DNA of 64,000 nucleotides, taken from the NCBI GenBank assembly GCA_014879535.1, contig JACSRX010000029.1:93476-157475 (forward strand), given 5' to 3'. The stretch is from Chthoniobacterales bacterium. Its GTDB lineage: Bacteria; Verrucomicrobiota; Verrucomicrobiia; Chthoniobacterales; JACTMZ01. This document shows, in pieces, positions 6,063 through 52,036 of the stretch (position 1 is its first letter; each line of letters opens with the position of its first letter). The notes under the pieces were generated by a model. That model was not told the DNA's origin and ran no database searches. It saw only the letters and a program-made list of their open reading frames with translations. A program made the position numbers and the translations under genes.

Positions 6063-7078
6063 GGCGCGAACTGCGAAAGGAAACGCTGGTCGTTCTCGAC
6101 GAACATCCGGATATCCGGAACGCCGTAAAGGATCATCGCCAGCCGTTCGAGGCCGAAACCGAAGGCGAACCCCGTGACTTTGTCCGGATCGAACGCCCGG
6201 TCGCCCCGCCTCGCGTTGATCTGCTCGAACACGGCGGGGTCCACCATGCCGCAGCCGGCCAGTTCAAGCCAGCGTGTCCCCCCACCCAACGCGGCGGCGC
6301 GCACGTCGAGCTCGTAGCTCGGTTCCGTGAACGGGAAAAAATGCGGACGGAAGCGCACACTCGTGTCCGGCCCGAACAACTCGCGGAAGAAAAACTCAAG
6401 CGTCCCCTTGAGGTCGCCAAGGGTGACTCCCTCGTCGACGTAAAGCCCCTCCATCTGCGTGAACTGCGCCAGATGCGTGGCATCCACCTCATCGCGCCGG
6501 TAGGCGGCGCCGGGGGATATGATGCGCACCGGGGGCGCCTGTCCTTCCATCGTGCGGATTTGCACGCTCGACGTGTGCGTGCGCAGCAACCGCCCGTCGG
6601 GAAGGTAAAACGTGTCCTGCTCGTTGCGCGCCGGATGGTCCTCCGGGGTGTTGAGCGCATCAAAGCAGTGCCACTCCGTCTCGATGTCCGGGCCCTCGGC
6701 CAGCGCGAAGCCCATGCGGCGGAAAATCTCCACGGCCCGGCGTTGGAGGACTTGGAGTGGATGCATGCTGCCGACCGCCCGGGCGACTCCGGGCAGCGTC
6801 GGATCCACACCCGCCAGTTCGGCCTCCTCGGCCGCGGACTGCAGCGCCGCGGTGCGTTCCTCAAGCGCGGCGGACACCGCTTGGCGGACTTCGTGGAGAA
6901 GCTTGCCGATTTCCGGCCGCTCCTCCTTCGCCAGGTGGCGCATCTGCTCCCCGGCATTGGTCAGCCGCCCCGCACGGCCGACATAGGCCACGCGCACGCG
7001 GTCCAACGCCGGGGAGTCGGTTGCGGACGCGATGTCACGCAGCGCCTCCCCGCGCAGGACGTTCAGTTCCTCCCGCAT
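6059..7078 (-). CDS. pheS: Phenylalanine--tRNA ligase alpha subunit
   Basis: Class II core motifs FRPHFFPFTEPS and GCGMVDP...GFAFGFGLERLAMI. Confidence 0.95.
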   Translation of the reverse strand: MREELNVLRGEALRDIASATDSPALDRVRVAYVGRAGRLTNAGEQMRHLAKEERPEIGKLLHEVRQAVSAALEERTAALQSAAEEAELAGVDPTLPGVARAVGSMHPLQVLQRRAVEIFRRMGFALAEGPDIETEWHCFDALNTPEDHPARNEQDTFYLPDGRLLRTHTSSVQIRTMEGQAPPVRIISPGAAYRRDEVDATHLAQFTQMEGLYVDEGVTLGDLKGTLEFFFRELFGPDTSVRFRPHFFPFTEPSYELDVRAAALGGGTRWLELAGCGMVDPAVFEQINARRGDRAFDPDKVTGFAFGFGLERLAMILYGVPDIRMFVENDQRFLSQFAP

Positions 7079-7103
7079 TGGGCGGATCTCCCGGCCTGAA
7101 GGA

Positions 7104-7466
7104 TCAGGCGGCCTTGAGTGCCGCGGCGGCCTTGGCCACCACTTGGTTGAAGGCGGCTTCGTCAGCCACGGCCAGATCGGCCAGCATCTTGCGATTGATG
7201 GCGATCGAAGCCTTCTTCAATCCCTCCAGCAGGCGGCTGTAGGTGATTCCCTCGGCGCGGCATGCGGCGTTGATGCGCGTGATCCACAGCCCGCGCAACG
7301 AACGTTTGCGGGTCTTGCGGTCGCGTGTCGCCCAGACCTGGGCCTTCATCCGCGCGTCTTTCGCGTAGCGGAAGAGTTTGCTTCTGCGTCCGCGATAGCC
7401 CTTGGCTTTCTCGACGACTCTTTTGCGCCGCTCACGACTGGCCGGCGCGTTTGTTGCTCTTGGCAT
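7104..7466 (-). CDS. rplT: 50S ribosomal protein L20
   Basis: [38 protein letters not shown]...; 120 aa. Confidence 0.95.
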
Positions 7467-7585
7467 TTGTTGTCCCGCCTTGCGGCGGTCTCCTTGGGAC
7501 GGATCGTTTCGTTGTTCGGCCCCTCACCTCATCCATCCCGTGAACCCCGATACGCGGGGCCAGGTGCGGCGGCCGGCGTCAATCT

Positions 7586-7795
7586 TCAACCAAAGGGCAG
7601 GTTCTCCTTGATGCGGGCCACGTCGCTCACATCCACGAGGATGTTCTTCGCGAGCTGCCGCTTGCGCTTGGCGCTCTTCGACGCCAGCAAGTGGCGGCGC
7701 GAGGCCTGGGCGCGGAGCACCTTCCCGGAAGCTGTGACCTTGAAACGCTTGGCCACGGCTTTCTTTGTTTTTCTGCGAGCTACCGGTTTCGGCAT
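7586..7795 (-). CDS. rpmI: 50S ribosomal protein L35
   Basis: MPKPVARRKTKKAVAKRFKVTASGKVLRAQASRRHLL...; 69 aa, directly upstream of rplT. Confidence 0.9.
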   Translation of the reverse strand: MPKPVARRKTKKAVAKRFKVTASGKVLRAQASRRHLLASKSAKRKRQLAKNILVDVSDVARIKENLPFG

Positions 7796-7843
7796 AAGCG
7801 AATCACAGTAATGGAAAGGCGCCCTTGCGGCAAACCTTTTCCA

Positions 7844-7990
7844 TCATTCCATCCAGTTGAGGATGTTGAAATTCGCGCTGACCATCACCGTGATGACAAT
7901 CCCGACCGTCAGGATGCCGAGCATTCCGACCGTGGAGGCAATGATGACCAGGGCATTGATGAGCCGGTCTTCGGACTGTGTGTCTTCCAT
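7844..7990 (-). CDS. Small (48 aa) single-pass membrane protein, hypothetical
   Basis: Own translation, below the track length cut-off: MEDTQSEDRLINALVIIASTVGMLGILTVGIVITVMVSANFNILNWME. One clear hydrophobic helix and no homology recognised. Confidence 0.3.
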   Translation of the reverse strand: MEDTQSEDRLINALVIIASTVGMLGILTVGIVITVMVSANFNILNWME

Positions 7991-8056
7991 CAGGGAAGGA
8001 CTACCAGCAAAGCAGGGACCAGACGAGTCCTTTTGCCCGTGGTGGCGCCGGGAAGC

Positions 8057-35088: not shown

Positions 35089-35553
35089 TTACTCCGCAAG
35101 GGCCTTCTCGATGTCCGCATCCTTGAGCGATGCCGGATGCCCCTGCCAGACAATCACCCCGTCCTTGTTCGCGAGGAACGCCGAGGGAATCCCCGACACC
35201 CCCATCTTCTCACTCAGCCGCCCGCCCGTGTCCGTCGCCGTCGGGTAATCCATCGGCACATCCTTCTGGAACTTGCGGATGACCGCATTCGGCTCATCCG
35301 TCACCCAGACAATCTCCAAGCCGCGATCCTTGAACTTCGCGTAAAGCTCGTTGAGGTGCGGAATGCTTTCCCGGCAAGGCGGACACCATGTCGCCCAGAA
35401 TTCCAGCAGCAGCGGCTTCCCCTCGAGTTCGGGCGATGCCTTGAGAAAATTCACCGAAATCTTCGGCAACTTTTCCCCGACCCAATTCTTCTCGGCCGCC
35501 ATCGCCGAAACCGCCAAAACCAACCCGACAGCAAGAAGCGCGTGGAGTTTCAT
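35089..35553 (-). CDS. TlpA/ResA-like periplasmic thiol:disulfide oxidoreductase
   Basis: Signal MKLHALLAVGLVLAVSAMA. Active site EFWATWCPPCR. Confidence 0.85.
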   Translation of the reverse strand: MKLHALLAVGLVLAVSAMAAEKNWVGEKLPKISVNFLKASPELEGKPLLLEFWATWCPPCRESIPHLNELYAKFKDRGLEIVWVTDEPNAVIRKFQKDVPMDYPTATDTGGRLSEKMGVSGIPSAFLANKDGVIVWQGHPASLKDADIEKALAE

Positions 35554-35608
35554 AGGCCGCGATTTAGCCCAACCCAACCGCAGGCGGCAAGCTGGGATTG
35601 CAGGCGGC

Positions 35609-36110
35609 CTACGATCTGGCTCTTTTCGAATCCATGTGGGCACGCGCCGCGGCGATCACGGCTTCGCTAACTCGGAAATTTGTGCGCGTCATCAGCAAGT
35701 CGAGCGTCAGATCGAAATCTGTCAGATTGCGCATGGCAGCCTCGATCACCACGCCCAGAGTGCCCGTGACCGCGAGGTCGAGGCGCGCAGCCACCATGCG
35801 ACCGCGCCGCTCGTCCAACAAGAGCAGATCGGCTTGCACCGCTTGGGCAAGACGGATTGCTGCCGTTTCGCCGACGTCCAGCACCACATCCCCCGGCAGC
35901 ACCGGGGCACCCTACGGAACATCTGTGACGCGCAGCCACGAAGGAACGGAAGCGGCCCATTGACGGAGCGCGGCAGGCGCACGTTCATGGAGGCACTCCG
36001 CAAGAACCTCAGGCGGACACACAACCTCTCCAAATTAAAGCCGGCAACCAAGCAAGACCGTCCACCACTGCCAGATACCGCAGGGGCGTCGTATCGCTGA
36101 CGACGATCAT
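35609..36110 (-). pseudogene. Decayed DUF3368 (PIN-like) gene, partner of the UPF0175 gene
   Basis: From ATG 36110 the sequence reads MIVVSDTTPLRYLAVVDGLAWLPAL. The frame then breaks near 36029-36040, and the ATG frame stops at 36009-36011. The conserved continuation EVVCPPEVLAECLHERAPAALRQWAASVPSWLRVTDVP lies in another frame. That frame ends at an in-frame TAG (35912-35914) and then continues GAPVLPGDVVLDVGETAAIRLA... to 35609. Confidence 0.7.
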
Positions 36111-36373
36111 GCCTCCCGCAGACGATCAAGCGTGGCAAGATCGGATTGCAACTCCCCCGCGGTGACACCGGGCCAAACACCACGCGAGGCAAGAAACTCC
36201 TCCGACTCCCAGCGAGATGTGTGGCCCAGAAGATGGCCCACCTCCGCGCACGAGAGCTTGCCGCTGCGATAACCCTCCACCGCGAGACTCTCCAACGTCG
36301 CCCGCGGGAGGTCATCCCACGCGCCGGTCAGGGTAGCAGCAACGCGGTCGGGAAGTTGCAGGGTGAGAGTCAT
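36107..36373 (-). CDS. UPF0175-family small protein (antitoxin-like partner of DUF3368)
   Basis: MTLTLQLPDRVAATLTGAWDDLPRATLESLAVEGYRSGKLSCAEVGHLLGHTSRWESEEFLASRGV..., 88 aa. Its stop overlaps the DUF3368 ATG (ATGA). Confidence 0.7.
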   Translation of the reverse strand: MTLTLQLPDRVAATLTGAWDDLPRATLESLAVEGYRSGKLSCAEVGHLLGHTSRWESEEFLASRGVWPGVTAGELQSDLATLDRLREA

Positions 36374-36490
36374 ACCCACCAAGCTACGTCGGGGCATCTC
36401 ACTTGGCAACCCGGCCCGAGACCTCGCCGGCAAGCCGGGACTGTGCAGGGTCCTCCATTCCGCCCCACTCCGGTTAAAACTCCAACCCGA

Positions 36491-36540
36491 CTCCGATCGC
36501 TTGCCACGTGCCCTTGGTGATTTGTTGACAGGTCCCTTTC
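36491..36540 (+). repeat. Island repeat unit, short copy D
   Basis: CTCCGATCGCTTGCCACGTGCCCTTGGTGATTTGTTGACAGGTCCCTTTC. Collinear with 37229-37318 apart from two internal deletions. Confidence 0.8.
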
Positions 36541-36553
36541 TGGGGTTGGTTGA

Positions 36554-36586
36554 CATGATGGCCTTTTGCTCCATGATGCCATCATG
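36554..36586 (+). promoter_or_regulatory. Candidate vapBC operator: CATGATGGC / GCCATCATG inverted repeat plus a third CATGATG
   Basis: CATGATGGCCTTTTGCTCCATGATGCCATCATG has 9-bp perfect arms at 36554-36562 and 36578-36586. It overlaps the vapB ATG (36584). A TTGACA lies just upstream at 36550-36555. Confidence 0.45.
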
Positions 36587-36817
36587 ATAAAGACGCAGAT
36601 CCAATTGGAAGAGTGGCAGTATCGTGCCGCGAAGAACGAGTCGGCGAGGACTTCGCGCAGTCTCTCCGACCTCGTCCGGGAGGGGCTGACCTCGGTTCTG
36701 CAGAAATCCCGGCATCAACCCCGCCAAACGCTGGAAAGTCTGGCCGGCAAGTATGGACCACAGTCCACCGACGATCTCAAACCGCATGACCAAGCTTGGG
36801 CGGATTCGATCCGATGA
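36584..36817 (+). CDS. vapB: Ribbon-helix-helix type antitoxin (VapB-like)
   Basis: MIKTQIQLEEWQYRAAKNESARTSRSLSDLVREGL... ATGA overlap with the PIN toxin gene. Confidence 0.7.
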   Translation: MIKTQIQLEEWQYRAAKNESARTSRSLSDLVREGLTSVLQKSRHQPRQTLESLAGKYGPQSTDDLKPHDQAWADSIR

Positions 36818-37218
36818 AGCCCGTGTTTGTGGACACGAGCGGCTTCTACGCGTTCCTCGACCGCACCGACCCGTTCCACGACCAAGCCAGCACCTTTTTT
36901 CTCCGGGCCCGTGACGAGGGCTGGGGGCTCTTCACTTCGAGCTATGTGGTCCACGAAACCTGGGCCCTCATCCAAGCACGCCTCGGCTGGGGCGCCGTGG
37001 AAGACTGGCTCTCCTCCCTGCTTCCCCTTTGCGAGGTCGTGTGGGTCGATGAAACCCTCCACCGCCTCGGCATGGCCCGCGCCCGCCAAGTCAGGGAAAG
37101 ACGACTGAGCCTCACCGACTGCGTCTCCTTCGAGGTCATGTCCGCCCGCAACTGCCTCGAAGCCATCGCCGACGACGAGCACTTCCGCAAACTGGGCTAC
37201 CTCCCACCCAAGGATTGA
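36814..37218 (+). CDS. vapC: PIN-domain toxin (VapC family)
   Basis: MKPVFVDTSGFYAFLDRTDPFH (first acidic residue), ...TSSYVVHET..., ...LSLTDCVSFEVM..., ...AIADDEHF. Confidence 0.8.
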   Translation: MKPVFVDTSGFYAFLDRTDPFHDQASTFFLRARDEGWGLFTSSYVVHETWALIQARLGWGAVEDWLSSLLPLCEVVWVDETLHRLGMARARQVRERRLSLTDCVSFEVMSARNCLEAIADDEHFRKLGYLPPKD

Positions 37219-37228
37219 TCCGCCCCTC

Positions 37229-37318
37229 CTCCGATCGCTCGCCACGTGCCCCATGGCGGGGAAAAAGGAAAGCATGGTGACTGTGTTGAGATTTGTTGAC
37301 AGACCCCTTTTTGCCTTT
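37229..37318 (+). repeat. Island repeat unit, long copy A. It is a direct repeat of D, and its distal 39 bp is an inverted repeat of units B and C.
   Basis: CTCCGATCGCTCGCCACGTGCCCCATGGCGGGGAAAAAGGAAAGCATGGTGACTGTGTTGAGATTTGTTGACAGACCCCTTTTTGCCTT. Positions 37285-37307 are the exact reverse complement of 41833-41855 and 42401-42423. Confidence 0.85.
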
Positions 37319-37326
37319 TCCTCGGT

Positions 37327-40300
37327 TCACCCACGAGACGCCTTTGTGTTCCATACAAATCCAACCTTTTGGAGTTGTTGAACGCGATTAGGTTTAAGTG
37401 TTCCTATCTTGAAGTGCGTTCGTTGTGTATTGACCCACCTACCAAGGAGCTTATCACCTCCGCCTTTTTGCGGGACGTTGCAGTGGCCATGGAGTTTCTT
37501 GAATTCAACCAACCTGTCGAACATTCGATCCCATGCATTCCGCTCAACTAGACGCCAGCTAAAGCCAATTTCATCGAGACGCTTGCTGCGCTTGGCGATG
37601 ATGGGACGATTGTATCGCTTTGCAGCCCGCTGACTTCGAACCCAAGTTCCAAGAGCAGCGTATTTACCGGAACGTTGAGGAACGTTTGTGTGGCCATGCT
37701 CTTTCTTAAATTCGACAAGTTGCCGGAACATTTCTTCCCAGCGGGTGCCAATTGGATCCCACTCGAAGCCCGCGTCGTTCAGCCGCTGCACGCGGTCTGG
37801 AGCGAGACGTTCGCGGCTGTAAGCCATGCGCTGTTCTGAAACCCAGTCTGCGAGTTTTCGATTCTCTTTCCACCGCTGCGGAACGAGGCAGTCGCCGTGC
37901 GCCTGTTTGTATTCGAGCAACGCCTGAAACATCATCTCGAAGTATTTTACGCTGGATAGCGGCCTCTCACCATTCGACGGTTTGGGCATGTGCGTTCGCG
38001 GCCTGCCACCTTTTCGCCCACCGTCCCAATCAAAAGCCAGTTCGTTCAGTCGTGCGATTTGCCAATCTGCCAGCTTCTGCTTCCGATACTTCCGTCGTTG
38101 TGTTGTGACCCACCATCCCAGCTTTTTGTCAGGCCGATAAACTTGTGGGACGGCTGCGTGACCGTGCTCCGCATGGAATGCAATAAGCCGCTTCAGCATT
38201 GTGTTCCACGCTTCCTGTGGGGAGCGGGTGCCGCTGAATTCACCGAGCCTCCAAGCGAAACCGAGAGCATCAAGCGCGGCGATTCGCTCGGGTGAAAGTT
38301 TGCCATCCAGCTTCCGCGCACGCTGAACCCCAACCCAATTCGCCAGCACTGGATTCTTGCTCCAGGCGGCTGGAACGCGACAGTGGCCGTGCTCCGCATG
38401 AAACCGCTTCAGTTCTCCAAGCATCCTATTCCAACGCGATGCGAACGGCTCCCACTCGAATCCGATGCCGGTGAGCCGCTTCTCACGCTCGGGTTCTAGG
38501 TCTCCGCGCTTTTTCGATTGGCGCTGAGTCAGCATCCACCGTTTCAGTTCGTCGCTGGCGGGTGCCTCTCGCCGCTTTCCATTGTGCATGGGCCGCATGT
38601 GTTCGACCAACTTTGCGAACATGGCATCCCAAGCGCCATCATGTGTGCTCCAGGCAAAGCCGATTTCCTCCATTCTGCTCACCTGCTCCGGCGTGAGCTG
38701 ATTCTGCTTCTTGGCCCGCCGTTGTATGGCGACCCAACGAGCAAGTTGGGGTTGAGGCGTCCAATCGGCAGGCACGTTGCAGTGGCCGTGCAGTTTGAAG
38801 AAGTCCACCAACTCAGAAAGCATTTCGTCCCATGTGCGGGTGATGGGAGTCTCGTCCACAGGAATAAGCTGCGAGGGCATCCCGATGCGCCGCGCGTTTC
38901 GCTGCCACACGAAACCAATTTCGTTCAGGGCGTTGATTCGCGTCTCGCTCAGCTCGCCCCGCTTCTTAGCCTGCCTCTGAGTCAGCATCCAGCGGTTGAG
39001 CTTCTTCGTGTCCTCGTCCACCACATAAACCGCAGCAGCGCCGTGCGCGGCGGCGTAAGCCCGAAAGCGGTCGAAAGCCACACGCCACTGCTTGTCTGGG
39101 TCGGTCGTTTTTTCATCAGCTCTGCTTGCTGCAGTTCGCCCATCCCATTCAAACCCGATAGAATTTAAGCGCTCAACAAGTGCATCAGAGAGTTTCCCCT
39201 TTTTATGCTGGTGTCGCTGACGAACAACCCACCTTCCCAGAAGCCCATTTTCTGCCCACTGCACATTGACGCGGGTGTGGCCAAATCTCTCCTTGAAAGC
39301 ACAAAGGTCAGCGAATCGCTTTTCCCATGTGCTTCGGTCGACCTTCCAGTCGAACCCAATCTTCTCGAGTAACGCAATTCGATCTCCATGTAGTTCGCCA
39401 CTCAGGAAGTCCATCCGCTGGGTTTTCACCCAGTGAGCCAGCGAATTGTTCTCCTTCCAATTCTGCGGAACACGGCAATGCCCGAAGCGTTTCTGGAACT
39501 TCACCAACTCCAGATAGGCACCTCGCCAATTCGTTTCTCTCGGATTCCAATTAAAACCCAGACGGTTCAAGAGCTCGACTTTCTCCGGCTCCAGATTGCC
39601 ATCACGTTTCCGCACTCGCTGATCCACAACCCATGTCGCCAGTTTTTGGTGCGCGTCCCATCGAGCGGGAATGCCGCAATCCCCGTGCTTCTGTTTGTAG
39701 GCAACCAGTTGCCCGTAACGCTCGAACCATGGTTCGCCAACCGCATCGAGACATGCCGCAGTGATGGTGCTGCGTAGCACTTCGAGGGAAAGCTCCGGCC
39801 CGAATATCTCCACTCGTTCTCGGAAACGGCTGTCGTCAAATCCGCCCGTGCAACCCCGCTCAATCCGCATCTCGGCGATAGTCTGAGCAAGCAGGTCGTC
39901 CTGCTCCTTCAGGCTCTGAAGGACTCTCCAAACCTCGTCGAAATTACTGCGCAAGACCGCCTGCTCAGTGGTCTCGCCGCGTGCCTCCTCGACGTAGAGC
40001 GGCACTAACACGTAGCCGATTTCCTTCTCTGGAGAGCGTCGCATTGCTCGGCCTGTCGCCTGCACGATGTCCACAATGCTTCTCTTCGGACTGAGAAACG
40101 CCACCATGTCAACAGCGGGAACATCCACGCCTTCCGTGAGACATCGCGCGTTGGAGAGAATGGCGCGCGGAGCGGCAGCGAATTCGCGCAGTAGCCGTTC
40201 GCGGTAAACGGTAGTCATCGCCCCTTCGATGTGCGCACAATGAAATCCCTTGAGATGTGTGCCGATGCCTTCCGGTCCGCCGGAGGTGAACGACTTAGCC

Positions 40301-41721
40301 GAATTGACCTTGGAGTGGAAGGTGAACACTTTCGAAACTTTGTATTTCTCAATGGCTGACTTGAGCGCGATTTGATTGGCAACTTGTCGGGCCTTTACTT
40401 CGTCCCCTTCGACCAGGACAACACCAAGCCGCAGCGCTTCGTTGGTGACCATCTCCGATGTCACAACCGAAATCAGCACCTTATAGTCGGTGATGATTCC
40501 AGCCTTCGCTGCCGCGTTGAACGGCAGCCGATGAACGACTTGCCCGTAAGTCTCGGGCACATTCATCGAGAAGACGACTTTCGATTCACCAAACTTGTCC
40601 TTCTTCGCCACGTCATAGTGACGCGGTGTCGCAGTCATGAAAAGTCGGCGTGCAATGGGCAGATTCTCGTCCTTGAGCGCGAGTGCAAACCTCGCGCCGT
40701 CTCGTCCAGCGGTCTTATGAGCTTCGTCGAACACGCCGAAATCAAAAGGCGGCAAGCCAGCGACGGCTGCCGCGACGACTTGGCTGGATTGATACGTGGA
40801 GAACACCAACCGCACCGAGTCGGTCTGCCTCTCAAGGAAGCGCCGCACGTCGGTAGCCTGCGTAGTGACCGCAAAGTCGAGGTCGGACGGGCGAACCAAC
40901 AGCGAATCTTCCTCCGGCTGAACTGTCGGATCGGAACAGACGCACAGGAATTGAACATCCGGCCAACTCGTCTCGTGAAGCCACTCGTGCAACGTCTGGC
41001 GAACCAGTGCCAGCGAAGGCAGCAAAACCAGCACGGTGCGTGCCCCAAGTCGTTCCGCAGCCCAAAGGGCGACCAAGGTCTTACCGCTGCCGCAAGCCAT
41101 CAATGCCGTGGCTCGTGGACCGCGTGCCAAACCTCCAACAATATCATTCAGGGCGACGACTTGGTGAGGCTTTGGATGTTTCCTTTTAGGGGCGGCCGCT
41201 CGCTCCGCGAGCCAAGCTTCGATGATCTGGAAATCCTCCGGCGTTAGGCGGTCGAGGTCGCTGCCCCTGACGAAGATGGCCCCCAACCGTTCCTCAGCGA
41301 CGCGGGCGACTTCATCGCAGTTGGTAAATACGAGCCTGCGCGCGCCAACATCAGCCAGGCCATAAAAAGTAGAAAGTTCGGTCCAAGTGAGCGCTGGCCG
41401 CCCAGTGCGGAACTTTGATTGGTAGCAGACGGGCTCCTCCACCGAACTGACGAATACTCCATCCACTCCCATGTCTGCCAACGGCAAGCGGAGTTGCTGG
41501 CGCAGTGATGAAGGCATTGAGTTTCCCGGCCAAACGTCGCGAGCCTGATAGATTCGCTGTGTCGCCAAACACGCTTCGGCGAAGACTTCGAGTGCTGCAC
41601 CTCTCGCTTGCTCCGTTGGCAGTGCTGCAATTCGCTCTTCAAGCTCGGCGAAAATCTGAACCCCTGACATCAAGCCGAGGCCATGAAAATGTTTCGCTTT
41701 GGGATGACGCGGCAGGTTCAT
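37327..41721 (-). CDS. Nuclease-helicase with an N-terminal PD-(D/E)xK (Mrr-like) domain, an SF2 DEAH helicase core and eleven tandem HA (helicase-associated) repeats
   Basis: 1,464 aa. Nuclease-like ...LADMGVDGVF...VCYQSKF. Walker A MACGSGKT (aa 208-215), DEAH (332-335), TAT (363-365), LTEGVDVP, and motif VI QATGRAMR (554-561). From aa ~663 there are eleven units of the form W..F..L..F...HGH..VP......L..WV..QR......L...R...L..IGF.W. Confidence 0.85.
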   Translation of the reverse strand: MNLPRHPKAKHFHGLGLMSGVQIFAELEERIAALPTEQARGAALEVFAEACLATQRIYQARDVWPGNSMPSSLRQQLRLPLADMGVDGVFVSSVEEPVCYQSKFRTGRPALTWTELSTFYGLADVGARRLVFTNCDEVARVAEERLGAIFVRGSDLDRLTPEDFQIIEAWLAERAAAPKRKHPKPHQVVALNDIVGGLARGPRATALMACGSGKTLVALWAAERLGARTVLVLLPSLALVRQTLHEWLHETSWPDVQFLCVCSDPTVQPEEDSLLVRPSDLDFAVTTQATDVRRFLERQTDSVRLVFSTYQSSQVVAAAVAGLPPFDFGVFDEAHKTAGRDGARFALALKDENLPIARRLFMTATPRHYDVAKKDKFGESKVVFSMNVPETYGQVVHRLPFNAAAKAGIITDYKVLISVVTSEMVTNEALRLGVVLVEGDEVKARQVANQIALKSAIEKYKVSKVFTFHSKVNSAKSFTSGGPEGIGTHLKGFHCAHIEGAMTTVYRERLLREFAAAPRAILSNARCLTEGVDVPAVDMVAFLSPKRSIVDIVQATGRAMRRSPEKEIGYVLVPLYVEEARGETTEQAVLRSNFDEVWRVLQSLKEQDDLLAQTIAEMRIERGCTGGFDDSRFRERVEIFGPELSLEVLRSTITAACLDAVGEPWFERYGQLVAYKQKHGDCGIPARWDAHQKLATWVVDQRVRKRDGNLEPEKVELLNRLGFNWNPRETNWRGAYLELVKFQKRFGHCRVPQNWKENNSLAHWVKTQRMDFLSGELHGDRIALLEKIGFDWKVDRSTWEKRFADLCAFKERFGHTRVNVQWAENGLLGRWVVRQRHQHKKGKLSDALVERLNSIGFEWDGRTAASRADEKTTDPDKQWRVAFDRFRAYAAAHGAAAVYVVDEDTKKLNRWMLTQRQAKKRGELSETRINALNEIGFVWQRNARRIGMPSQLIPVDETPITRTWDEMLSELVDFFKLHGHCNVPADWTPQPQLARWVAIQRRAKKQNQLTPEQVSRMEEIGFAWSTHDGAWDAMFAKLVEHMRPMHNGKRREAPASDELKRWMLTQRQSKKRGDLEPEREKRLTGIGFEWEPFASRWNRMLGELKRFHAEHGHCRVPAAWSKNPVLANWVGVQRARKLDGKLSPERIAALDALGFAWRLGEFSGTRSPQEAWNTMLKRLIAFHAEHGHAAVPQVYRPDKKLGWWVTTQRRKYRKQKLADWQIARLNELAFDWDGGRKGGRPRTHMPKPSNGERPLSSVKYFEMMFQALLEYKQAHGDCLVPQRWKENRKLADWVSEQRMAYSRERLAPDRVQRLNDAGFEWDPIGTRWEEMFRQLVEFKKEHGHTNVPQRSGKYAALGTWVRSQRAAKRYNRPIIAKRSKRLDEIGFSWRLVERNAWDRMFDRLVEFKKLHGHCNVPQKGGGDKLLGRWVNTQRTHFKIGTLKPNRVQQLQKVGFVWNTKASRG
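37330..39735 (-). repeat. Coding tandem array of 11 HA-domain units (about 66-73 aa each), diverged at the DNA level
   Basis: Unit starts read from the translation: EPWFERYGQL, TNWRGAYLEL, STWEKRFADL, KQWRVAFDRF, RTWDEMLSEL, GAWDAMFAKL, SRWNRMLGEL, EAWNTMLKRL, KYFEMMFQAL, TRWEEMFRQL, NAWDRMFDRL. Confidence 0.85.
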
Positions 41722-41826
41722 TCGCCGTGTTTCAGAATGAATTGCACACCTGTTTCATGCTGCCATTGGCGAGGACGAAGCTGGCCATGCCTTGCGGGGC
41801 GAGGTGGTGTATAAAGTGCTGCCCAT

Positions 41827-41941
41827 GCAAATGGGGTCTGTCAACAAATCTCAACAATGTCTCAAGATCTCCCGATACCGGAAGCAGGTGGTGACTCGCT
41901 CGTTGACCATGCCGACGGCCTGCATGAAGGCGTAGCAGATG
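41827..41941. repeat. Island repeat unit B plus a truncated third copy (75 bp) of the tag 3' end
   Basis: GCAAATGGGGTCTGTCAACAAATCTCAACAATGTCTCAAG is followed by ATCTCCCGATACCGGAAGCAGGTGGTGACTCGCTCGTTGACCATGCCGACGGCCTGCATGAAGGCGTAGCAGATG. It is collinear with 42395-42509, with a few mismatches. Confidence 0.85.
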
Positions 41942-41949
41942 TGCAGGCA

Positions 41950-42231
41950 TCAGAGGGCAACGTAGGCTTTTGCGCCCCCGGGAATCCGCGAGGGGTCAAT
42001 CCTGGCGTCGAAGGTGGCAAAGCGGCCGCCGTGTTTCACCGCCAAGTGGTGGATGGATGGGGATGGCACGCCGGAATTCCTCCTCGTCAAGTTCCGCCTC
42101 GATCTCCTTGATCTTCTCCAAGGTGATCGTTTCCCCAGCCCCCCCTCTGTAGCGCCAAGAATCCAAGGGGCCCGATTTCGAATTTCTCCGGGGCTGGGTT
42201 GGTCGTTTTCATGGATATGGGTGTGTGTCAA
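41950..42231 (-). pseudogene. Toxin-antitoxin remnant: C-terminal fragment of a PIN/VapC-type toxin, possibly fused to an antitoxin fragment
   Basis: The track ORF ends ...SIHHLAVKHGGRFATFDARIDPSRIPGGAKAYVAL, like VapC C-termini (..LAA.A..HG..LATFD..F...PG...). No N-terminal PIN acidic residues are present. A neighbouring frame reads ETITLEKIKEIEAELDEEEFRRA. Confidence 0.45.
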
Positions 42232-42269
42232 ATATCACTCGAAAAGCCCCTCCTTGTCAGCCATCCATA

Positions 42270-42390
42270 ACCTCCCGATGCCGAAAGCAGGTGGTCACAT
42301 GGTCGTTGACCATGCCGACGGCTTGCATGAAGGCGTAGCAGATGGTCGAGCCGACGAAGTTGAAGCCGAGCTTTTTGAGGTCCTTGCTCA
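42270..42390. repeat. Second copy (121 bp) of the tag 3' end with its own stop context
   Basis: Differs from 42435-42555 at 5 of 121 positions. On the minus strand it encodes (V)SKDLKKLGFNFVGSTICYAFMQAVGMVNDHVTTCFRHREVMDG*. Confidence 0.9.
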
Positions 42391-42391
42391 C

Positions 42392-42555
42392 AAGGCAAAA
42401 GGGGTCTGTCAACAAATCTCAACAATGTCTCAATACCTCCCGATGCCGGAAGCAGGTGGTGACGTGGTCGTTGACCATGCCGACGGCCTGCATGAAGGCG
42501 TAGCAGATGGTCGAGCCGACGAAGTTGAAGCCGAGCTTTTTGAGATCCTTGCTCA
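42392..42555. repeat. Island repeat unit C plus the resident copy of the repeated tag 3' segment
   Basis: AAGGCAAAAGGGGTCTGTCAACAAATCTCAACAATGTCTCAAT is followed by the last ~40 codons of tag. The last six tag codons and the stop (EVLRHC*) are encoded inside unit C. Confidence 0.9.
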
Positions 42556-43003
42556 TGGCGTCCGACTCCGTGGTGCGGGTCGGGAGGTTGGCCATGGAGG
42601 CCCGGCGGTGCTGACGCGGTTTTCCGTCCACATAACGCCAGAGAAATGAATCGAGGGACCCGTGCTCCTCGCGGATCTTCAGGACGCCGCAGGCATTGCG
42701 GATGGTGGACTCGATCTTGAGACGGTTGCGGACGATCCCCGGGTCCTGCATCAACCTCTCCACATCGCGCGGGGAAAACCGGGCAACTTTCTCCGCGTCG
42801 AACCCGGCGAACGCCTTGCGGTAGTTCTCCCGCTTCTTGAGGATGGTCAGCCAACTCAGCCCGGCCTGGGCGCCTTCCAGGATGAGGAACTCGAAGAGCA
42901 CGCGGTCGTCGTGCACGGGCACACCCCATTCTTCATCATGGTAGGCCACATAGAGCGGATCATTCGGGCACCAAGCGCAGCGCTTTTTCACGGGGGATGT
43001 CAC
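42419..43003 (-). CDS. tag: DNA-3-methyladenine glycosylase I
   Basis: KKRCAWCPNDPLYVAYHDEEWGVPVHDDRVLFEFLILEGAQAGLSWLTILKKRENYRKAF...GSTICYAFMQAVGMVNDH aligns with E. coli Tag throughout. GTG 43003 is chosen as the start; ATG 43054 would overlap the mlaD-like gene. Confidence 0.85.
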   Translation of the reverse strand: MTSPVKKRCAWCPNDPLYVAYHDEEWGVPVHDDRVLFEFLILEGAQAGLSWLTILKKRENYRKAFAGFDAEKVARFSPRDVERLMQDPGIVRNRLKIESTIRNACGVLKIREEHGSLDSFLWRYVDGKPRQHRRASMANLPTRTTESDAMSKDLKKLGFNFVGSTICYAFMQAVGMVNDHVTTCFRHREVLRHC

Positions 43004-43013
43004 AAGCAGAAAA

Positions 43014-43997
43014 TTAAGGCCGCGGGGTGGCCGATGCCGAAACCTGCCCTGCATCACGGATCGTCGCCGCATTCCGCTGCCGCGGCAGGAACAGGCGGAG
43101 CACCCAGATGTTGCGGAAATCCGCGATCAGGGATTCCGCGCGGCCAGCCGCCGCGTTCGAGCGCTCGAGAAGCTGGTGGAGTTCGGGGGCGGAGGTCTTG
43201 GCGGTCTGCTCAAGCTGCTCGGACGTGCGGCGCAGCGCGGAGACACTCTTTCCGATTTCATCCATCAAGGGAGGCAGGCGGCTTTCGACTTCGCTGGTGA
43301 CCGCAAGCAGATGCCTCCGCGCCTGCGCGATGTCCCCGTTCTCGTCCGCGAGCCCCTCCATGAACTCCCTCGTGGACTTGGTGGCCGCCGTGGCCTCGGC
43401 CAGCGTCGCCGGAACATCCCGGGCCAGATCGACCGTGAGCGTGCGCACGGCGGCAAGCGATTGACGCACATCGCCGTCGGGGCTGTTGAGTTCGTTGAAC
43501 AGCTCGGCGCCCGTGGCGATGACCGGACGCAGGTCGTCGCGCAGGGATTTCGCAATCTCGCCGAGGGAGGCCTCGCGCTCGACCGCGATGTCCGCCCCGT
43601 CCTGCAACGGCGGCAAGCTTGGCGTGCCGGTCCGTAGATTGATGTAGGGTGTCTCCAGCGGACCGCGTCCGGTGAGAACCGCCACCGCATCCTGTCGCAG
43701 CCAGACCGCCCCCCGACGCCGCACCCGCAGGGACATCCGGGGTTCCCCCTGCTCGTCCAGCCAGACATCATGCACCCTCCCCACCCGGATGCCGTGCAGG
43801 GTGACATTCATGCCCGGCAAAATGCCGTCCGCCCGCCCGGGCGAGGCGAAATAGTCATCCGTCGGCTCGAACAAATCCTGCTGCCATGCAAGGACGGCTC
43901 CCATGAAAATCAGGAGGATGCAGAGCAAAGCGAGGAAGCTGCCGACCTTGAGGCCGAGGTATTGGAACCTTGGATCCGTGTCGCGCAGATATTTCAT
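43014..43997 (-). CDS. mlaD: MlaD/MCE-family substrate-binding protein
   Basis: N-terminal TM (VGSFLALLCILLIFMGAVLAW). MCE domain (GILPGMNVTLHGIRVGRVHDVWLDEQGEPRMSLRV...). Long helical C-terminus. Confidence 0.75.
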   Translation of the reverse strand: MKYLRDTDPRFQYLGLKVGSFLALLCILLIFMGAVLAWQQDLFEPTDDYFASPGRADGILPGMNVTLHGIRVGRVHDVWLDEQGEPRMSLRVRRRGAVWLRQDAVAVLTGRGPLETPYINLRTGTPSLPPLQDGADIAVEREASLGEIAKSLRDDLRPVIATGAELFNELNSPDGDVRQSLAAVRTLTVDLARDVPATLAEATAATKSTREFMEGLADENGDIAQARRHLLAVTSEVESRLPPLMDEIGKSVSALRRTSEQLEQTAKTSAPELHQLLERSNAAAGRAESLIADFRNIWVLRLFLPRQRNAATIRDAGQVSASATPRP

Positions 43998-48910: not shown

Positions 48911-51900
48911 TCAGGGAATGGTGAGTTTGATGCGGACGAAGCGCCGCCCCGCACTGCCGGGTGGCAGGGTTGCCTTCACATGCTGGATGAGGCCATTGTC
49001 CGAGATGACTCCTGAGGCTACTCCTGCGGTGCTCCAGCTTCCCGTCTTCAGGTCTTCGTGCCATTCCACGGTGAATGTCGCACCCGCTGCCACCGCCGCA
49101 ACACTCCGGGTGTAATGGTATTCAATGCTGTCTCCATTGTGCATCAATGTGAAAGGCAGTGCATTGGGAGTATTCGGGTCCAGCCCAAAAGCCCACTCCA
49201 GACAATTCGAAAGGCCGTCTTTGTCTGTGTCGTCCCCTCCCGTTAGATTGGCTTGGGCAAGGTGAGGTGAAATCTTGTTCCCTGCTTTCCCGAAACGTCC
49301 TCCGGCATACAGATTGGCACCATCCAAGGCCAAGGCAAAGACGCTGCCATCAACGCCCGAACCAAGCGCCGACCATTCCACCCCATTCCACTTTGCAATG
49401 CCATTGGCCCCCACGCCGCCAGCAGACATGAAAAATCCTCCTGCATAAAGGTTGCCACCGCCATCCACAGCCAGAGCATACACATAGGCATAGCTCCCCC
49501 ACTCTCCTTCGATGCCCGAACCCAACGCCAACCATTCGCTGCCGTTCCACCGCGCGATACTATTGGCTTCCTCATCATCGGCAGTGCCAAAATATCCCCC
49601 TGCGTAAAGGTTGCCGCTGCCATCCACAGCCAAGGCATAAACATATGTATTGCCCCATTCATCCTCCATGCCCGAACCCAAGGCAGACCATGTGCTGCCG
49701 TTCCACTTGGCGATGTTGTGGGCTTCGACGCCGCCTGCGGTATTGAACCAACCTCCCGCGTAAAGGTTGCCGCCTCCATCCACAGCCAAGGCATTAACGG
49801 AGCCGACTTCGGTCCACCACTCCTGCGAGGTCTCCATGCCCAAACCCAAGGCAGACCACGCGCTGCCGTCCCATTGCGCAATACTATTGGCATCTTCTCC
49901 GCCCGCGGTGGTGAAGCTTCCTCCTGCATAAAGATTACCGAAGTCATCCGCAGCCAAGGCATTGACATAGGCATAGCCCGATTCGTCATTGACGCCCGAT
50001 CCCAATGCAGACCACGCACTGCCGTTCCACCTTGCGATCCTGCTGGCCTCCATTCCACCCGCGATGGTGAAGCTCCCCCCTGCGTAAAGGTTGCCGCTGC
50101 CATCCACAGCCAAGGCATGGACGTCGCCACCAGAGAAACCCAAACCCAAGGTCGACCAAGCACTGCCATTCCACTTGGCGATGCGATTGGCATCTATTCC
50201 CCCCGCCGTGCTGAATCCTCCCCCCACATAGAGGTTGCCGTCGCCGTCCGCGATCAAGGCAGAAACGCTGCTATTTATACCCAACCCGGCATCTAAGGCT
50301 GACCACGCGCTGCCGTTCCACTTCGCGATACCATTATCCCCGCGCCCAGTATAGACAGTGCCATTGCCGTCCACAGCCAAGGCATAAACATGACCAATAC
50401 CTGAACCCACCGCTGACCATGTGCTACCGTCCCACTTGGCTATCCCGTTCACTTCAACCCCTCCCGCAGCGGTGAACCATCCTCCTGCCCAGACATTCCC
50501 GCTGCCGTCAACAACCAAGGCCATAACCGAGCCTGCACCGCCCTCCACGCCCGAGTCCAATGGAGACCATGTGCTGCTGTCCCACTTGGCGATATTATTG
50601 GCCTCCACGTCGCCCGCCATGGTGAATCCGCCTCCTGCGTAGAGGTCGCCGCTGGCATCCACTGCCAAGGCACTGACACTGCCGCCGCTGACCCCATCAC
50701 CCAGAGCGGACCACATATAGCCATTCCACTTGGCAATGTTGTTGACCTCCACGCCACCTGCGGTGTTGAACCAACCTCCCGCGTAGAGATTGCCGCTGCC
50801 ATCCACTGCCAAGGCGGAGATAGAGCCATCCATGCCCGATCCTAAGATCGACCATGCGCTGCCATTCCACCTCGCAATACAATTTGCCTCCACGCCGCCT
50901 GCGGTGTTGAACCAACCTCCCGCGTAGAGGATGTCACTTTCGTCCACAACCAATGCATAAACCACTCCATCATCCATGCCCGAGCCCAGTGCTGACCATA
51001 CGCTGCCGTTCCACATTGCAACACCATTGGCCTCCACTCCACCTGCAGTGCTGAAGCCTCCGCCTGCGTAGACATTCCCGCTTCCATCCACCGCCAAGGC
51101 ACCAACGCCACCATTGATGCCCAAGCCCAGCGCCGACCACGCGCTGCCACTCCACCTCGCGATGCAACTTGCCGCAATCCCGCCTGCGGTGCTGAAGCTC
51201 CCACCCACGTAGAGATTGCCGTTTCCATCCACAACCAACGCATCGACGGAACCGCTTATGTCAGGTGCATCAGGGTTAAGGACGATCCAATCAGCATCAC
51301 TGAATGTAGGATCGATCCGAACAGGGTAAACCGCTCCGGCGTCATCGACGCGCACGGCCAGCCGTCCCGAATCAAGAACTTCCATATGTGCGGAAAGTTC
51401 GCATCCAGAAGCATCAGTCACATGCAGCCGGTGGTAGGCCAACTCCCTCCCCGTGGCCTCAATGGTCAGCTTCGCCCCGTAGTCTGCTGCCTCGGCGCGC
51501 GCACCCGTCACCTCCATCACCACGCTCAACTCCCCTGCGCCCGCAGGCCGCTCAAGCACCACGAAGTCCTGCCTCACCCCGTCGCCGCTCACACGGTATT
51601 CCTCCACCAATCCCGGGCGAACCCACGAGACCGACTCGTTCCCAACCAGAATACTCCCCTTGGGCAGCAGCGCCACGGATGTTTCCCGCCCCACCAACGC
51701 GGCGCTGAGACGGAAGCAGTTGGGCTTGTCCAAGTCCTCGTCCGCTGTCGAGGTGAGCCACAGTCCTTCGGGTGTAACCTCTCCCTCCAAGTCTTGCAGG
51801 ACAGCCCGCAACTTGGCCCCGGCAGCCGTTGGCGTGATGCCCATGCCCTCGCCGGAATATTGCCTCTGCGCCTCAACCCCAAGCTGGTCAAATGGGATGG

Positions 51901-52036
51901 ATGCCGAAGGCTGGGGTTCCGCAGAGGCCAGCGCATCACCGCCTGCTATCGGGAAGACACAGGCGAGGATTGCGGCAACGAGTAAGCATCGGAAGCTGCA
52001 ACCTCCACTCTGATGGGGAGAGTCGGCTGAAGTCAT
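48911..52036 (-). CDS. Secreted beta-propeller-repeat (SBBP-like) protein with 13 tandem repeats and the shared C-terminal tail
   Basis: Signal-like CLLVAAILACVFPIAGGDALA. 13 units of about 50 aa with IA[KR]W[ND]GS.WSALG.G...V.ALAVDGSGNLYAGG.F..AGGV.A. The tail is DTDKDGLSNCLEWAFGLDPNTPN...RRFVRIKLTIP. Confidence 0.85.
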   Translation of the reverse strand: MTSADSPHQSGGCSFRCLLVAAILACVFPIAGGDALASAEPQPSASIPFDQLGVEAQRQYSGEGMGITPTAAGAKLRAVLQDLEGEVTPEGLWLTSTADEDLDKPNCFRLSAALVGRETSVALLPKGSILVGNESVSWVRPGLVEEYRVSGDGVRQDFVVLERPAGAGELSVVMEVTGARAEAADYGAKLTIEATGRELAYHRLHVTDASGCELSAHMEVLDSGRLAVRVDDAGAVYPVRIDPTFSDADWIVLNPDAPDISGSVDALVVDGNGNLYVGGSFSTAGGIAASCIARWSGSAWSALGLGINGGVGALAVDGSGNVYAGGGFSTAGGVEANGVAMWNGSVWSALGSGMDDGVVYALVVDESDILYAGGWFNTAGGVEANCIARWNGSAWSILGSGMDGSISALAVDGSGNLYAGGWFNTAGGVEVNNIAKWNGYMWSALGDGVSGGSVSALAVDASGDLYAGGGFTMAGDVEANNIAKWDSSTWSPLDSGVEGGAGSVMALVVDGSGNVWAGGWFTAAGGVEVNGIAKWDGSTWSAVGSGIGHVYALAVDGNGTVYTGRGDNGIAKWNGSAWSALDAGLGINSSVSALIADGDGNLYVGGGFSTAGGIDANRIAKWNGSAWSTLGLGFSGGDVHALAVDGSGNLYAGGSFTIAGGMEASRIARWNGSAWSALGSGVNDESGYAYVNALAADDFGNLYAGGSFTTAGGEDANSIAQWDGSAWSALGLGMETSQEWWTEVGSVNALAVDGGGNLYAGGWFNTAGGVEAHNIAKWNGSTWSALGSGMEDEWGNTYVYALAVDGSGNLYAGGYFGTADDEEANSIARWNGSEWLALGSGIEGEWGSYAYVYALAVDGGGNLYAGGFFMSAGGVGANGIAKWNGVEWSALGSGVDGSVFALALDGANLYAGGRFGKAGNKISPHLAQANLTGGDDTDKDGLSNCLEWAFGLDPNTPNALPFTLMHNGDSIEYHYTRSVAAVAAGATFTVEWHEDLKTGSWSTAGVASGVISDNGLIQHVKATLPPGSAGRRFVRIKLTIP

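Follow-up and report, generated by a model that had tools for sequence, protein, structure and literature searches.

The DNA directly downstream of tag in this Chthoniobacterales bacterium is best explained as a chromosomal recombination hotspot, a small addiction/defence islet that was probably put together bit by bit and does not represent one mobile element (a reading to which we assign a probability of about 0.6). As it stands, the region is an ordinary accessory-genome mosaic. This kind of hotspot is already known, and the site is a new example of it, offering a small and clear case of the turnover of toxin-antitoxin (TA) and restriction-type genes at one chromosomal site with no resident mobility gene. 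The recurring link between tag and a short repeat, here called R, is the only point with the potential for something larger. The sequence analysed, referred to as the window, is a stretch of 64,000 nt (assembly GCA_014879535.1, contig JACSRX010000029.1, positions 93,476-157,475 of the forward strand).

Boundaries and cargo of the site

The genes and gene remnants at the site are as follows; copies of R and of the tag 3' end are given in later sections.

35089-35553 (-): tlpA-like periplasmic thioredoxin/redoxin gene (Pfam Redoxin 2.1e-20, AhpC-TSA 8.4e-20), 88% identical to its orthologue in L001; core-gene boundary
35609-36110 (-): DUF3368 (PIN-like toxin) pseudogene (Pfam DUF3368), part of the backbone common to L001
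36107-36373 (-): intact UPF0175 antitoxin-like gene (Pfam UPF0175 2.3e-12), inside the L001-syntenic block 36506-31633
36550-36577: promoter-like site ahead of vapB (consensus scan)
36584-36817 (+): vapB-like antitoxin gene, a small ORF ahead of vapC
36814-37218 (+): intact vapC gene for a PIN-domain toxin (Pfam PIN 5.8e-08)
37327-41721 (-): nuclease-helicase gene, 1464 aa, with an Mrr-like nuclease and an SF2 helicase (Pfam ResIII, Helicase_C, 11 HA)
41754-41831 (-): fragment of hsdM (type I methyltransferase), 78 nt (tblastn with the L001 N6_Mtase fragment, 83% over 23 aa)
41950-42212 (-): gutted VapBC-like pair, the remnant of an ancestral 96-aa antitoxin and a 141-143-aa PIN toxin
42419-43072 (-): tag, DNA-3-methyladenine glycosylase I (Pfam Adenine_glyco, E = 6.7e-84); the other core-gene boundary

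The Pfam matches uphold the boundaries drawn in an earlier sequence-only reading, in which core genes end at 35553 with the tlpA-like gene and restart at 42419 with tag. Every item of its inventory was found as well: UPF0175, a broken DUF3368 gene, vapBC, the nuclease-helicase, a PIN remnant, four copies of R and three tag 3' ends. That reading took everything from 35554 to 42434 to be accessory, which holds for 36507-42434 and fails for 35554-36506. The latter segment, which covers UPF0175, DUF3368 and a portion of R1, is conserved backbone and not cargo, because it is syntenic with the closest relative examined (L001, Tag 92% identical) at 86.5% identity. Since the relative has different cargo and the same UPF0175/DUF3368 end, the variable part is only about 5.9 kb long (36507-42434).

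Comparison with L001 reveals conserved flanks, with MlaE-MlaD-tag on one side and UPF0175/DUF3368-tlpA-Bax1-I on the other. Window positions 48000-42435 are 93% identical to L001 and positions 36506-31633 are 86.5% identical; the interiors are unrelated save for short patches. Common to the two sites are UPF0175/DUF3368, an hsdM remnant and one of the R copies. L001 has as its cargo two additional VapBC-like pairs together with Fic, a further PIN pair, an hsdM fragment and a 308-aa ORF. More distant relatives (L006, L013-L016 and L017) have TA pairs stacked downstream of tag. These patterns bear out the earlier suggestion of a recombination hotspot that accumulates cassettes. No empty tag-tlpA junction is present among the handful of relatives examined, the site of the closest one being filled with other cargo, so it is replacement that is observed and not gain or loss as such. 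Of the sequencing runs, only two contain 5% of the words of this region.

The site resembles the defence and TA islets known from core-gene hotspots in its conserved flanks with different accessory genes in a close relative, in its cargo of TA modules, restriction-modification debris, Fic and nuclease-helicase, and in having no mobility gene inside. It differs from them in its very small size (about 6 kb), in that no empty site was seen, and in its duplicated flanking-gene 3' ends and dedicated short repeat. The earlier statement that the region has no integrase, transposase or tRNA gene agrees with the searches made here. ARAGORN finds no tRNA or tmRNA gene anywhere in the 64-kb window, and Rfam gives no match, whether the window is scanned in full at gathering thresholds or the island at permissive E-values. 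ORF calls and Pfam account for every ORF of the island, and none is a recombinase; the gene list of the L001 region syntenic with window 31.6-48 kb, like those of the other Tag loci, names no recombinase family.

In the backbone, the DUF3368 gene is disrupted by a single frameshift around codon 26 and a single in-frame stop relative to its intact 166-aa L001 orthologue (tblastn). The vapBC segment (36507-37239) has no blastn match in the L001 island. Its vapC start and vapB stop overlap as ATGA, and Pfam gives no family above threshold for the vapB-like ORF. With a PIN-domain toxin gene behind a small overlapping antitoxin gene, 36584-37218 is classed as a putative type II VapBC system, likely to act as an addiction or abortive-infection TA pair. 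The gutted pair at 41950-42212 matches the pair behind tag in L001, L006, L013-L016 and L017 (five lineages), the pair being intact in relatives; the L006 toxin of this pair matches TIGR00028 VapC (3.8e-24).

The nuclease-helicase gene has a GC content of 0.566, against about 0.638 for the backbone, and GC falls across 37-42.5 kb of the window. Its homologues in unrelated contexts are 91% identical across the N-terminal 640 aa, and nucleotide identity with those loci (82-85%) begins 80-100 nt upstream of the helicase ATG. One homologue stands after a truncated hsdM (L018) and another near IleRS (L021), and the hsdM/helicase junction is identical in the window, L018 and L021, which are three unrelated genomic contexts. 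Judged from sequence and context, the nuclease-helicase is a low-GC, horizontally acquired module. Its product is predicted to be a translocating nuclease that likely acts on foreign DNA. The PADLOC model REase_MTase_IIG matches the protein at E = 1.8e-82, over model positions 19-653 of 1646 and the N-terminal 620 aa only. The gene resembles type ISP/IIG enzymes (LlaGI-like) in its N-terminal Mrr-like nuclease and SF2 translocase; it differs in having 11 HA repeats in place of the methyltransferase/target-recognition half, and the window provides no partner methyltransferase, just the 78-nt hsdM scrap. Classification as a full type ISP/IIG restriction-modification enzyme was therefore rejected, as the match is confined to the nuclease and translocase half and the C-terminal half consists of HA repeats.

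Copies of the tag 3' end

The last part of the tag gene occurs three times.

42435-42555 (-): copy A, the real gene end, 121 nt; the segment that is duplicated
42257-42390 (-): copy B, 134 nt, whose C-terminus (MDG-stop) is the ancestral one; identity with A is 95.8% across 118 nt
41867-41941 (-): copy C, 73 nt, encoding ICYAFMQAVGMVNERVTTCFRYREI, 94.5% identical to A

Copy B is 92.5% identical to L001 10437-10570 and is contiguous with the ancestral TA promoter. The identity between A and B (95.8%) equals that between A and the L001 tag (95.8%). An independent duplication of the tag 3' end, of about 158-165 nt, surrounds a vapBC pair in L006 and is without R. In the window, an R head was fused to the tag end twice, and displaced tag 3' ends were left behind.

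These duplications could be taken as the remains of one or more integrase-driven elements that targeted the tag 3' end and imported a tag 3' copy, the integrase having been deleted later and the TA genes kept by addiction. The three copies in the window and the independent duplication around vapBC in L006 are consistent with such a history. So are the drop in GC over 37-42.5 kb and the divergence of the copies, which is as large as that between separate lineages and is expected if one copy was imported. However, no integrase was found in any of the Tag loci examined (the window island, L001 and the other relatives). The duplications have three lengths and start points, and thus no fixed att core, and the differing copy lengths in the window and L006 argue against a site-specific integrase. 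All three window copies lie within 700 nt (41867-42555) at one end of the island and none on the tlpA side, and the parts of the cargo have separate histories. We regard an integrase-driven origin as unlikely. The same evidence defines the relation to islands that integrate into gene 3' ends (tRNA/tmRNA-type att duplication): the target gene 3' end is directly repeated with the displaced original end downstream, but here there is no integrase, the repeats vary in length and the island is not bracketed by them. A diversity-generating retroelement (DGR) was also considered, with the tag copies as its template/variable repeat pair, and rejected: a reverse transcriptase is lacking, and the copies differ, on an informal view, in a pattern that is not adenine-focused.

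The repeat R in the window and in relatives

R consists of a head of about 38 nt and a tail of about 57 nt.

36481-36542 (+): R1, internally deleted (degenerate head and tail), orthologous to L001 15630-15720, with its tail within the L001-syntenic block
37219-37313 (+): R2, full R, 90% identical over 72 nt to L001 13696-13766
41829-41866 (-): R3, head only, with its inner end fused to tag 3' copy C
42391-42434 (-): R4, a head fused to the working tag end, for which it encodes the four C-terminal residues (LRHC) and the stop codon

Matches of 17 nt among the R cores occur four times and matches of 23 nt three times, against 0.03 and 0.00 in shuffled sequence. A profile search of the whole window adds no copy, as the earlier reading had held in counting four copies and none elsewhere in the window. 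Folding of R is no better than that of shuffled sequence (z -1.3 to +0.85). An integron/attC array (CALIN) was rejected, the R units being without attC-type hairpin folding and the site without an integrase. A Xer/dif-type module was also set aside, R showing no dif-like palindrome by eye. Derivation of the R tail from a diverged tag 3' end or from upstream transposase coding sequence was dropped, as convincing alignment extends over only about 35 nt.

An exact-pattern scan for the R core in 185,579 species genomes, a collection that excludes the source genome and that of L001, yielded a single locus, L008. A metagenome scan yielded four loci (L009-L012). Of these, L010 and L012 extend slightly further; L009 and L011 look like chance 19-mers, since such matches are expected at the size of the metagenome database. 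In the Verrucomicrobiae genome of L008 and its extended form L024, the R head extends over the final codons and the stop of two remnants of Y1-transposase (TIRYT-type) genes, whose full-length relatives carry a Y1_Tnp domain. Both are 3' remnants, and one is cut by an IS66 element. The published TIRYT terminal-repeat motif is GGGGWSAS (PMC3733652). The outer end of R in the window copies, GGGGTCTG, fits it at 7/8 positions; the right arm of a pair in L013 reads GGAGTCAG and a copy in L003 reads GGGTCAG. The two remnants in one genome and this short motif suggest that R is a terminal repeat belonging to a TIRYT-type Y1 transposase element, which would place such a repeat in uncultured Verrucomicrobiae.

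Comparison with TIRtrons/TIRYT (Di Nocera et al. 2013, PMC3733652; subclass 2.1 of Quentin et al. 2018, PMC6006769) extends the likeness beyond the outer end. The gene whose 3' end R overlaps in L008 encodes a Y1 transposase with a long C-terminal extension, and R copies occur singly, in groups and, ahead of tag in L013 and L017, as an inverted pair whose arms measure 23 bp. Unlike TIRYT repeats, the R copies cluster around tag in the available sequence instead of being dispersed, and two are joined in frame to the tag end. R also resembles the REP/REPIN-RAYT systems (PMC3116915) in the probable tie between short non-autonomous repeats and a single Y1 transposase and in inverted doublets that can fold into a long hairpin; it differs in that the window R head is non-palindromic and has no GTAG tag.

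A trans-acting Y1 (TIRYT) transposase might use R units as active ends and move the segments that they bound, for example the helicase (from R3 to R2) or vapBC (from R1 to R2), by way of single-stranded intermediates; its preferred target would be tag or a site beside it. Such movement accords with the R heads that bound each window cassette and with the inverted, 91% complementary arrangement of R3 and R2. Relative to L001, R2 is an island of homology with unrelated DNA on both sides. The GGGG end of R abuts truncated genes (hsdM in the window and an IS701 transposase gene in L008), and, besides the window, four related loci have R-like heads near tag (L001, L003-L005, L013-L016 and L017). 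The tag/R-head junction falls at almost the same codon in the window and in L003-L005, whose Tag is only 85% identical; this could point to a targeted reaction and not random joining. With R-like heads near tag in relatives and no TIRYT gene in the 64-kb window, the enzyme would have to act in trans. Against movement of this kind, R1 and R2 are direct and not inverted repeats, and the GGGG termini of R3 and R2 face the helicase while those of the L013 pair point outward from the bounded unit. A composite or non-autonomous transposon carrying the helicase was rejected on the same orientation, and no target-site duplication was seen on either side of the helicase segment. The helicase module is found elsewhere without R and with an hsdM hitch-hiker of variable length, and R by itself shows no significant fold. 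None of the loci examined showed an intact TIRYT gene lying between two R copies, and the two papers on these enzymes treat TIRYT activity as a proposal awaiting test and do not describe cargo transport (PMC3733652, PMC6006769). Movement of R-bounded segments in this way is rather improbable. The earlier proposal of a mobilising enzyme acting in trans is plausible only for R, which looks TIRYT-type.

R-like heads are confined to within a few kb of tag across about 190 kb of related sequence, a distribution for which passive homology gives no explanation. It is quite a remote prospect that the tag 3' end and the R head together form a recurrent capture site served by a trans-acting Y1 (HUH, TIRYT-type) transposase. 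That reading would explain the R-like heads beside tag, the same-codon tag/R junction in two lineages and the R-bounded cassettes. If true, it would mean single-strand, integron-like stacking of small TA/defence cassettes beside a DNA-repair gene.

Least credible is a role for R as a regulatory or RNA element (promoter, operator or terminator) travelling with the cassettes: R contains TTGACA and three TCAAC-like motifs at 10-nt spacing and lies about 45 nt upstream of vapB (R1) and some 120 nt ahead of the helicase start codon (R3), but the consensus scan gives no TTGACA inside R a -10 partner (a sigma-70 promoter inside R was dropped on this ground), the sole promoter-like match near R1 relies on another TTGACA that lies outside R, R2 and the L001 copy L001a each lie between convergent gene ends, the same head overlaps the transposase stop codon in L008, and R has neither an Rfam match nor a significant fold.

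Probable assembly of the islet

The alternative history offered by the sequence-only reading, one decaying integrated element, finds no support, given the separate histories of the parts, the position of the tag copies at one end and the differing lengths of the duplications. The TA remnant, the helicase with its hsdM junction, the vapBC pair unique to the window and the conserved UPF0175/DUF3368 genes point to several independent events. The ancestral layout was tag, a VapBC-like pair and, further on, an hsdM remnant, R units, UPF0175/DUF3368 and tlpA. The first TA pair was gutted in the source genome, and the low-GC nuclease-helicase module came in with the 78-nt piece of hsdM attached. An unrelated vapBC pair lies between the conserved units R1 and R2. 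More than one reconstruction fits the order of these events.

In the piecemeal hotspot, cargo would be swapped by the general recombination of the host. Patches of homology would be offered by the conserved genes on either side, by the tag 3' end, by relics of restriction-modification and TA genes and by the R units. Illegitimate joins at microhomology would close the far ends, and the tag 3' copies may be scars of one-sided or single-crossover insertions. R, as a putative TIRYT-type Y1/HUH terminal repeat, would have spread as solo or paired copies by means of an enzyme encoded elsewhere, and its part at this site would be that of portable homology at most. The hsdM fragment is joined 37 nt upstream of the helicase start and abuts the GGGG end of R3, and the R3/hsdM joint falls at a TTYGCC microhomology.

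The tag-tlpA interval and its counterparts in relatives

The interval between tag (DNA-3-methyladenine glycosylase I) and the tlpA-like gene, 35554-42434, is best explained as a mosaic recombination hotspot downstream of tag, a reading to which we assign a probability of about 0.6. The features are listed from tag inward; R1 to R4 are the copies of a short repeat, R.

42419-43072, minus strand: tag, a core gene and one boundary of the interval
R4
42257-42390: copy B of the tag 3' end (copy A, 42435-42555, is the real end of tag)
41950-42212: gutted VapBC-like pair
41867-41941: copy C of the tag 3' end
R3
78-nt hsdM fragment
37327-41721, minus strand: 1464-aa nuclease-helicase gene
R2
36584-37218: intact vapC-vapB pair, oppositely oriented
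R1
UPF0175
DUF3368 pseudogene
35089-35553, minus strand: tlpA-like redoxin gene, a core gene and the other boundary

The inventory bears out each item that the sequence-only reading listed, namely its gene types, its four R copies and its three tag 3' ends. That reading also held that R occurs nowhere else in the window and that the interval contains no integrase, transposase or tRNA gene. A profile search of the 64 kb found no further R copy, and searches of the interval found no tRNA gene, Rfam family or recombinase ORF. The 3-4 R matches are far more than the 0.00-0.03 expected by chance. The GC content of the window is ~64%, and the nearest named relatives of its Tag protein are Verrucomicrobiae. 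Because the longest tag ORF overlaps the 3' end of the upstream MlaD gene (43014-43997) by 59 nt and Tag is 189-200 aa long in relatives, the true tag start probably lies about 20-30 codons downstream of 43072.

A close relative with the same flanks (L001) has a Tag 92% identical to that of the window. Its backbone matches window 48000-42435 at 93% and window 36506-31633 at 86.5%. Between these flanks are the ancestral VapBC-like pair, a second pair, an hsdM fragment, a 308-aa ORF, one R unit, Fic, another PIN pair and a degenerate R. The match over 36506-31633 shows that UPF0175/DUF3368 and R1 belong to the conserved backbone and that the truly variable stretch is 36507-42434. The claim that everything between the two core genes is accessory is thus upheld for 36507-42434 and withdrawn for UPF0175/DUF3368 and R1. 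In L006, L013-L016 and L017, loci in which Tag is 82-85% identical, the neighborhood differs, with a PALP gene on one side and DNA polymerase B on the other. Downstream of tag there is again this same VapBC-like pair (96 aa and 141-143 aa), followed by more toxin-antitoxin (TA) pairs; it is absent from L003-L005. An empty tag-tlpA junction was not found among the relatives examined. The region downstream of tag is a long-standing collecting place for TA and defense genes, whose content varies between close relatives.

The sequence-only reading had left two possibilities. Its recombination hotspot gathering cassettes is favored by the other cargo between the same flanks in L001 and by the TA pairs stacked 3' of tag elsewhere. 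Its single decaying integrated element is not supported, as the TA remnant, the helicase module and R2 each have their own history and the tag copies are not att-like. The TA remnant is orthologous to the VapBC-like pair 3' of tag in other loci and has lost most of both genes. Since copy B has retained the ancestral C-terminus and runs directly into the promoter region of the ancestral TA pair, copy B and the remnant are the original end of the locus, now displaced. The intact vapBC pair has no blastn match in L001. Judged by their families, its genes are predicted to encode an ordinary PIN toxin and an overlapping antitoxin, and UPF0175 would be without a working partner.

Elsewhere in the window, a 1041-aa ORF (48911-52036, minus strand) with a signal-like N-terminus, numerous repeats of the form 'NIAKWNGSAWSALGSG...ALAVDGSGNLYAGG' and a low GC content (~0.56-0.57) fills the 3.4 kb that separate the FUSC gene from the SMC gene. 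These two genes are adjacent in L001, which suggests a second insertion or variable site.

The nuclease-helicase module

The GC content of the helicase gene is 0.566, compared with 0.638 for the backbone. Residues 1-640 are 91% identical to proteins from two unrelated contexts, one 3' of a truncated hsdM (L018-L020) and the other between a 23S-rRNA-IVP gene and ileS (L021-L023). Nucleotide homology to both begins 80-100 nt upstream of the ATG, and the hsdM/helicase junction, which lies 37 nt 5' of the start codon, is identical in the window and both other contexts. Such a shared junction means that the helicase travels as a module, dragging along an hsdM piece of variable length. An hsdM remnant occupies the corresponding position in the L001 island and is a plausible homology patch for gaining the module. 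In L018 (6800-11300), and also in L019 and L020, the helicase homolog immediately follows a truncated hsdM (396 aa) and precedes two HsdR C-terminal fragments (T1RH-like_C). Here the module apparently landed within a type I restriction locus, from which the hsdM scrap carried by the helicase elsewhere probably derives.

Over its N-terminal 620 residues the protein matches the nuclease and translocase half of a PADLOC model for type IIG/ISP restriction-modification enzymes (E = 1.8e-82), and Mrr-like D...QxK residues were seen by eye. Unlike type IIG/ISP enzymes, the protein has 11 HA repeats in place of the methyltransferase half. Its family relationships suggest that it is most likely a stand-alone translocating nuclease directed against foreign DNA. 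The two closest relatives of this 1464-aa protein have 719 and 1007 aa, other family members have up to ~1100 aa, and the homology of the window gene to L018 and L021 ends within the repeat region. These features, noted at 37327-39800 (minus strand), suggest that the HA repeat array was expanded or reshuffled in the window copy.

Copies of the tag 3' end

The final four residues of the working tag (LRHC) and its stop codon come from R4, and copy C shows the same kind of fusion, to R3. In L003-L005 (Tag 85% identical) an R-like head is fused to tag at nearly the same codon, ≤1-2 nt from the fusion point in the window, though the downstream genes differ; the head (L003 10385-10434, also in L004 and L005) encodes the Tag end (…CFRHRECAETLSRVVD-stop). 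An independent tag 3' duplication in L006 measures ~158-165 nt; it surrounds another vapBC pair and lacks R. Copies A and B are 95.8% identical, as are copy A and the L001 tag.

An element that targeted the tag 3' end and later lost its integrase is an unlikely explanation of the interval. The duplications vary in length (73, 134 and ~160 nt) and in start point, and all those in the window are at one end of the island, which is at odds with a fixed att core. The pattern is compatible with imported DNA recombining via the highly conserved tag 3' end. On its far side that DNA would have been attached by an illegitimate join or a single crossover, an example being the R3/hsdM joint, which lies at a TTYGCC microhomology.

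The identity of R

R consists of a head of ~38 nt (ATTGAGACATTGTTGAGATTTGTTGACAGACCCC), followed in only some copies by a tail of ~57 nt. R2 is homologous to L001 over an isolated 72 nt, and the DNA to its left and right is unrelated. Among 185,579 species genomes, a collection without the source genome or that of L001, the sole match to the R core is in a Verrucomicrobiae MAG (L008/L024). A repeated gene is present there as two remnants, both overlapped by the R head at their last codons (VEIC-stop), and one of these copies adjoins a truncated gene for an IS701 transposase. With the closest relative of the repeated gene as query, an exhaustive HMMER search returned 531 proteins; those of full length (340-390 aa) carry a Y1_Tnp (IS200-like, HUH) domain at the N-terminus, and the query aligns to their long C-terminal extension.

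TIRYTs are tyrosine transposases whose flanking terminal inverted repeats have GGGGWSAS in common (PMC3733652; PMC6006769 subclass 2.1). The repeats sometimes overlap the gene 3' end, and in some genomes they are found as single, paired or grouped copies (PMC3733652; PMC6006769). For comparison with GGGGWSAS, the outer end of R is GGGGTCTG and the L003 copy is GGGTCAG. An inverted pair of R-like heads lies just 5' of tag at L013 7836-7980 (right arm GGAGTCAG) and L017 1-110. The pair has 23-bp arms, a ~72-nt spacer and AAAC on both sides, is kept in two lineages, and resembles a REPIN- or MITE-like doublet of the TIRYT repeat. R itself is best read as a putative TIRYT-type terminal repeat, linked to a gene through two remnants, both from a single genome. 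An intact gene flanked by R was not seen, the extended L008 locus (L024) included, and neither the window nor any of the Tag loci contains a TIRYT gene. The L008 regions 2925-3140 and 6630-8000 (= L024) are an insertion-sequence graveyard, where the R end cuts an IS701 transposase fragment and where an IS66 element and two 3' remnants of TIRYT genes also lie.

In four further related loci R-like heads are concentrated around tag, and another ~190 kb of sequence from these genomes contains none; the tag/R junction is at nearly the same codon in two lineages. Both observations are unexplained by a hotspot and keep alive the explanation that a Y1 transposase with a preference for tag moves R-bounded cassettes, improbable as we consider it. 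That R is a regulatory element is very doubtful, as it contains no promoter-like match and alone has no significant fold.

In L017 a 567-aa Hexapep-repeat gene is inserted 3' of tag, and a tandem pair of truncated R outer ends (AAGCAAGGCAAAGGGGTCGGTCATG; 2655-2710) lies between this gene and the ancestral TA pair.
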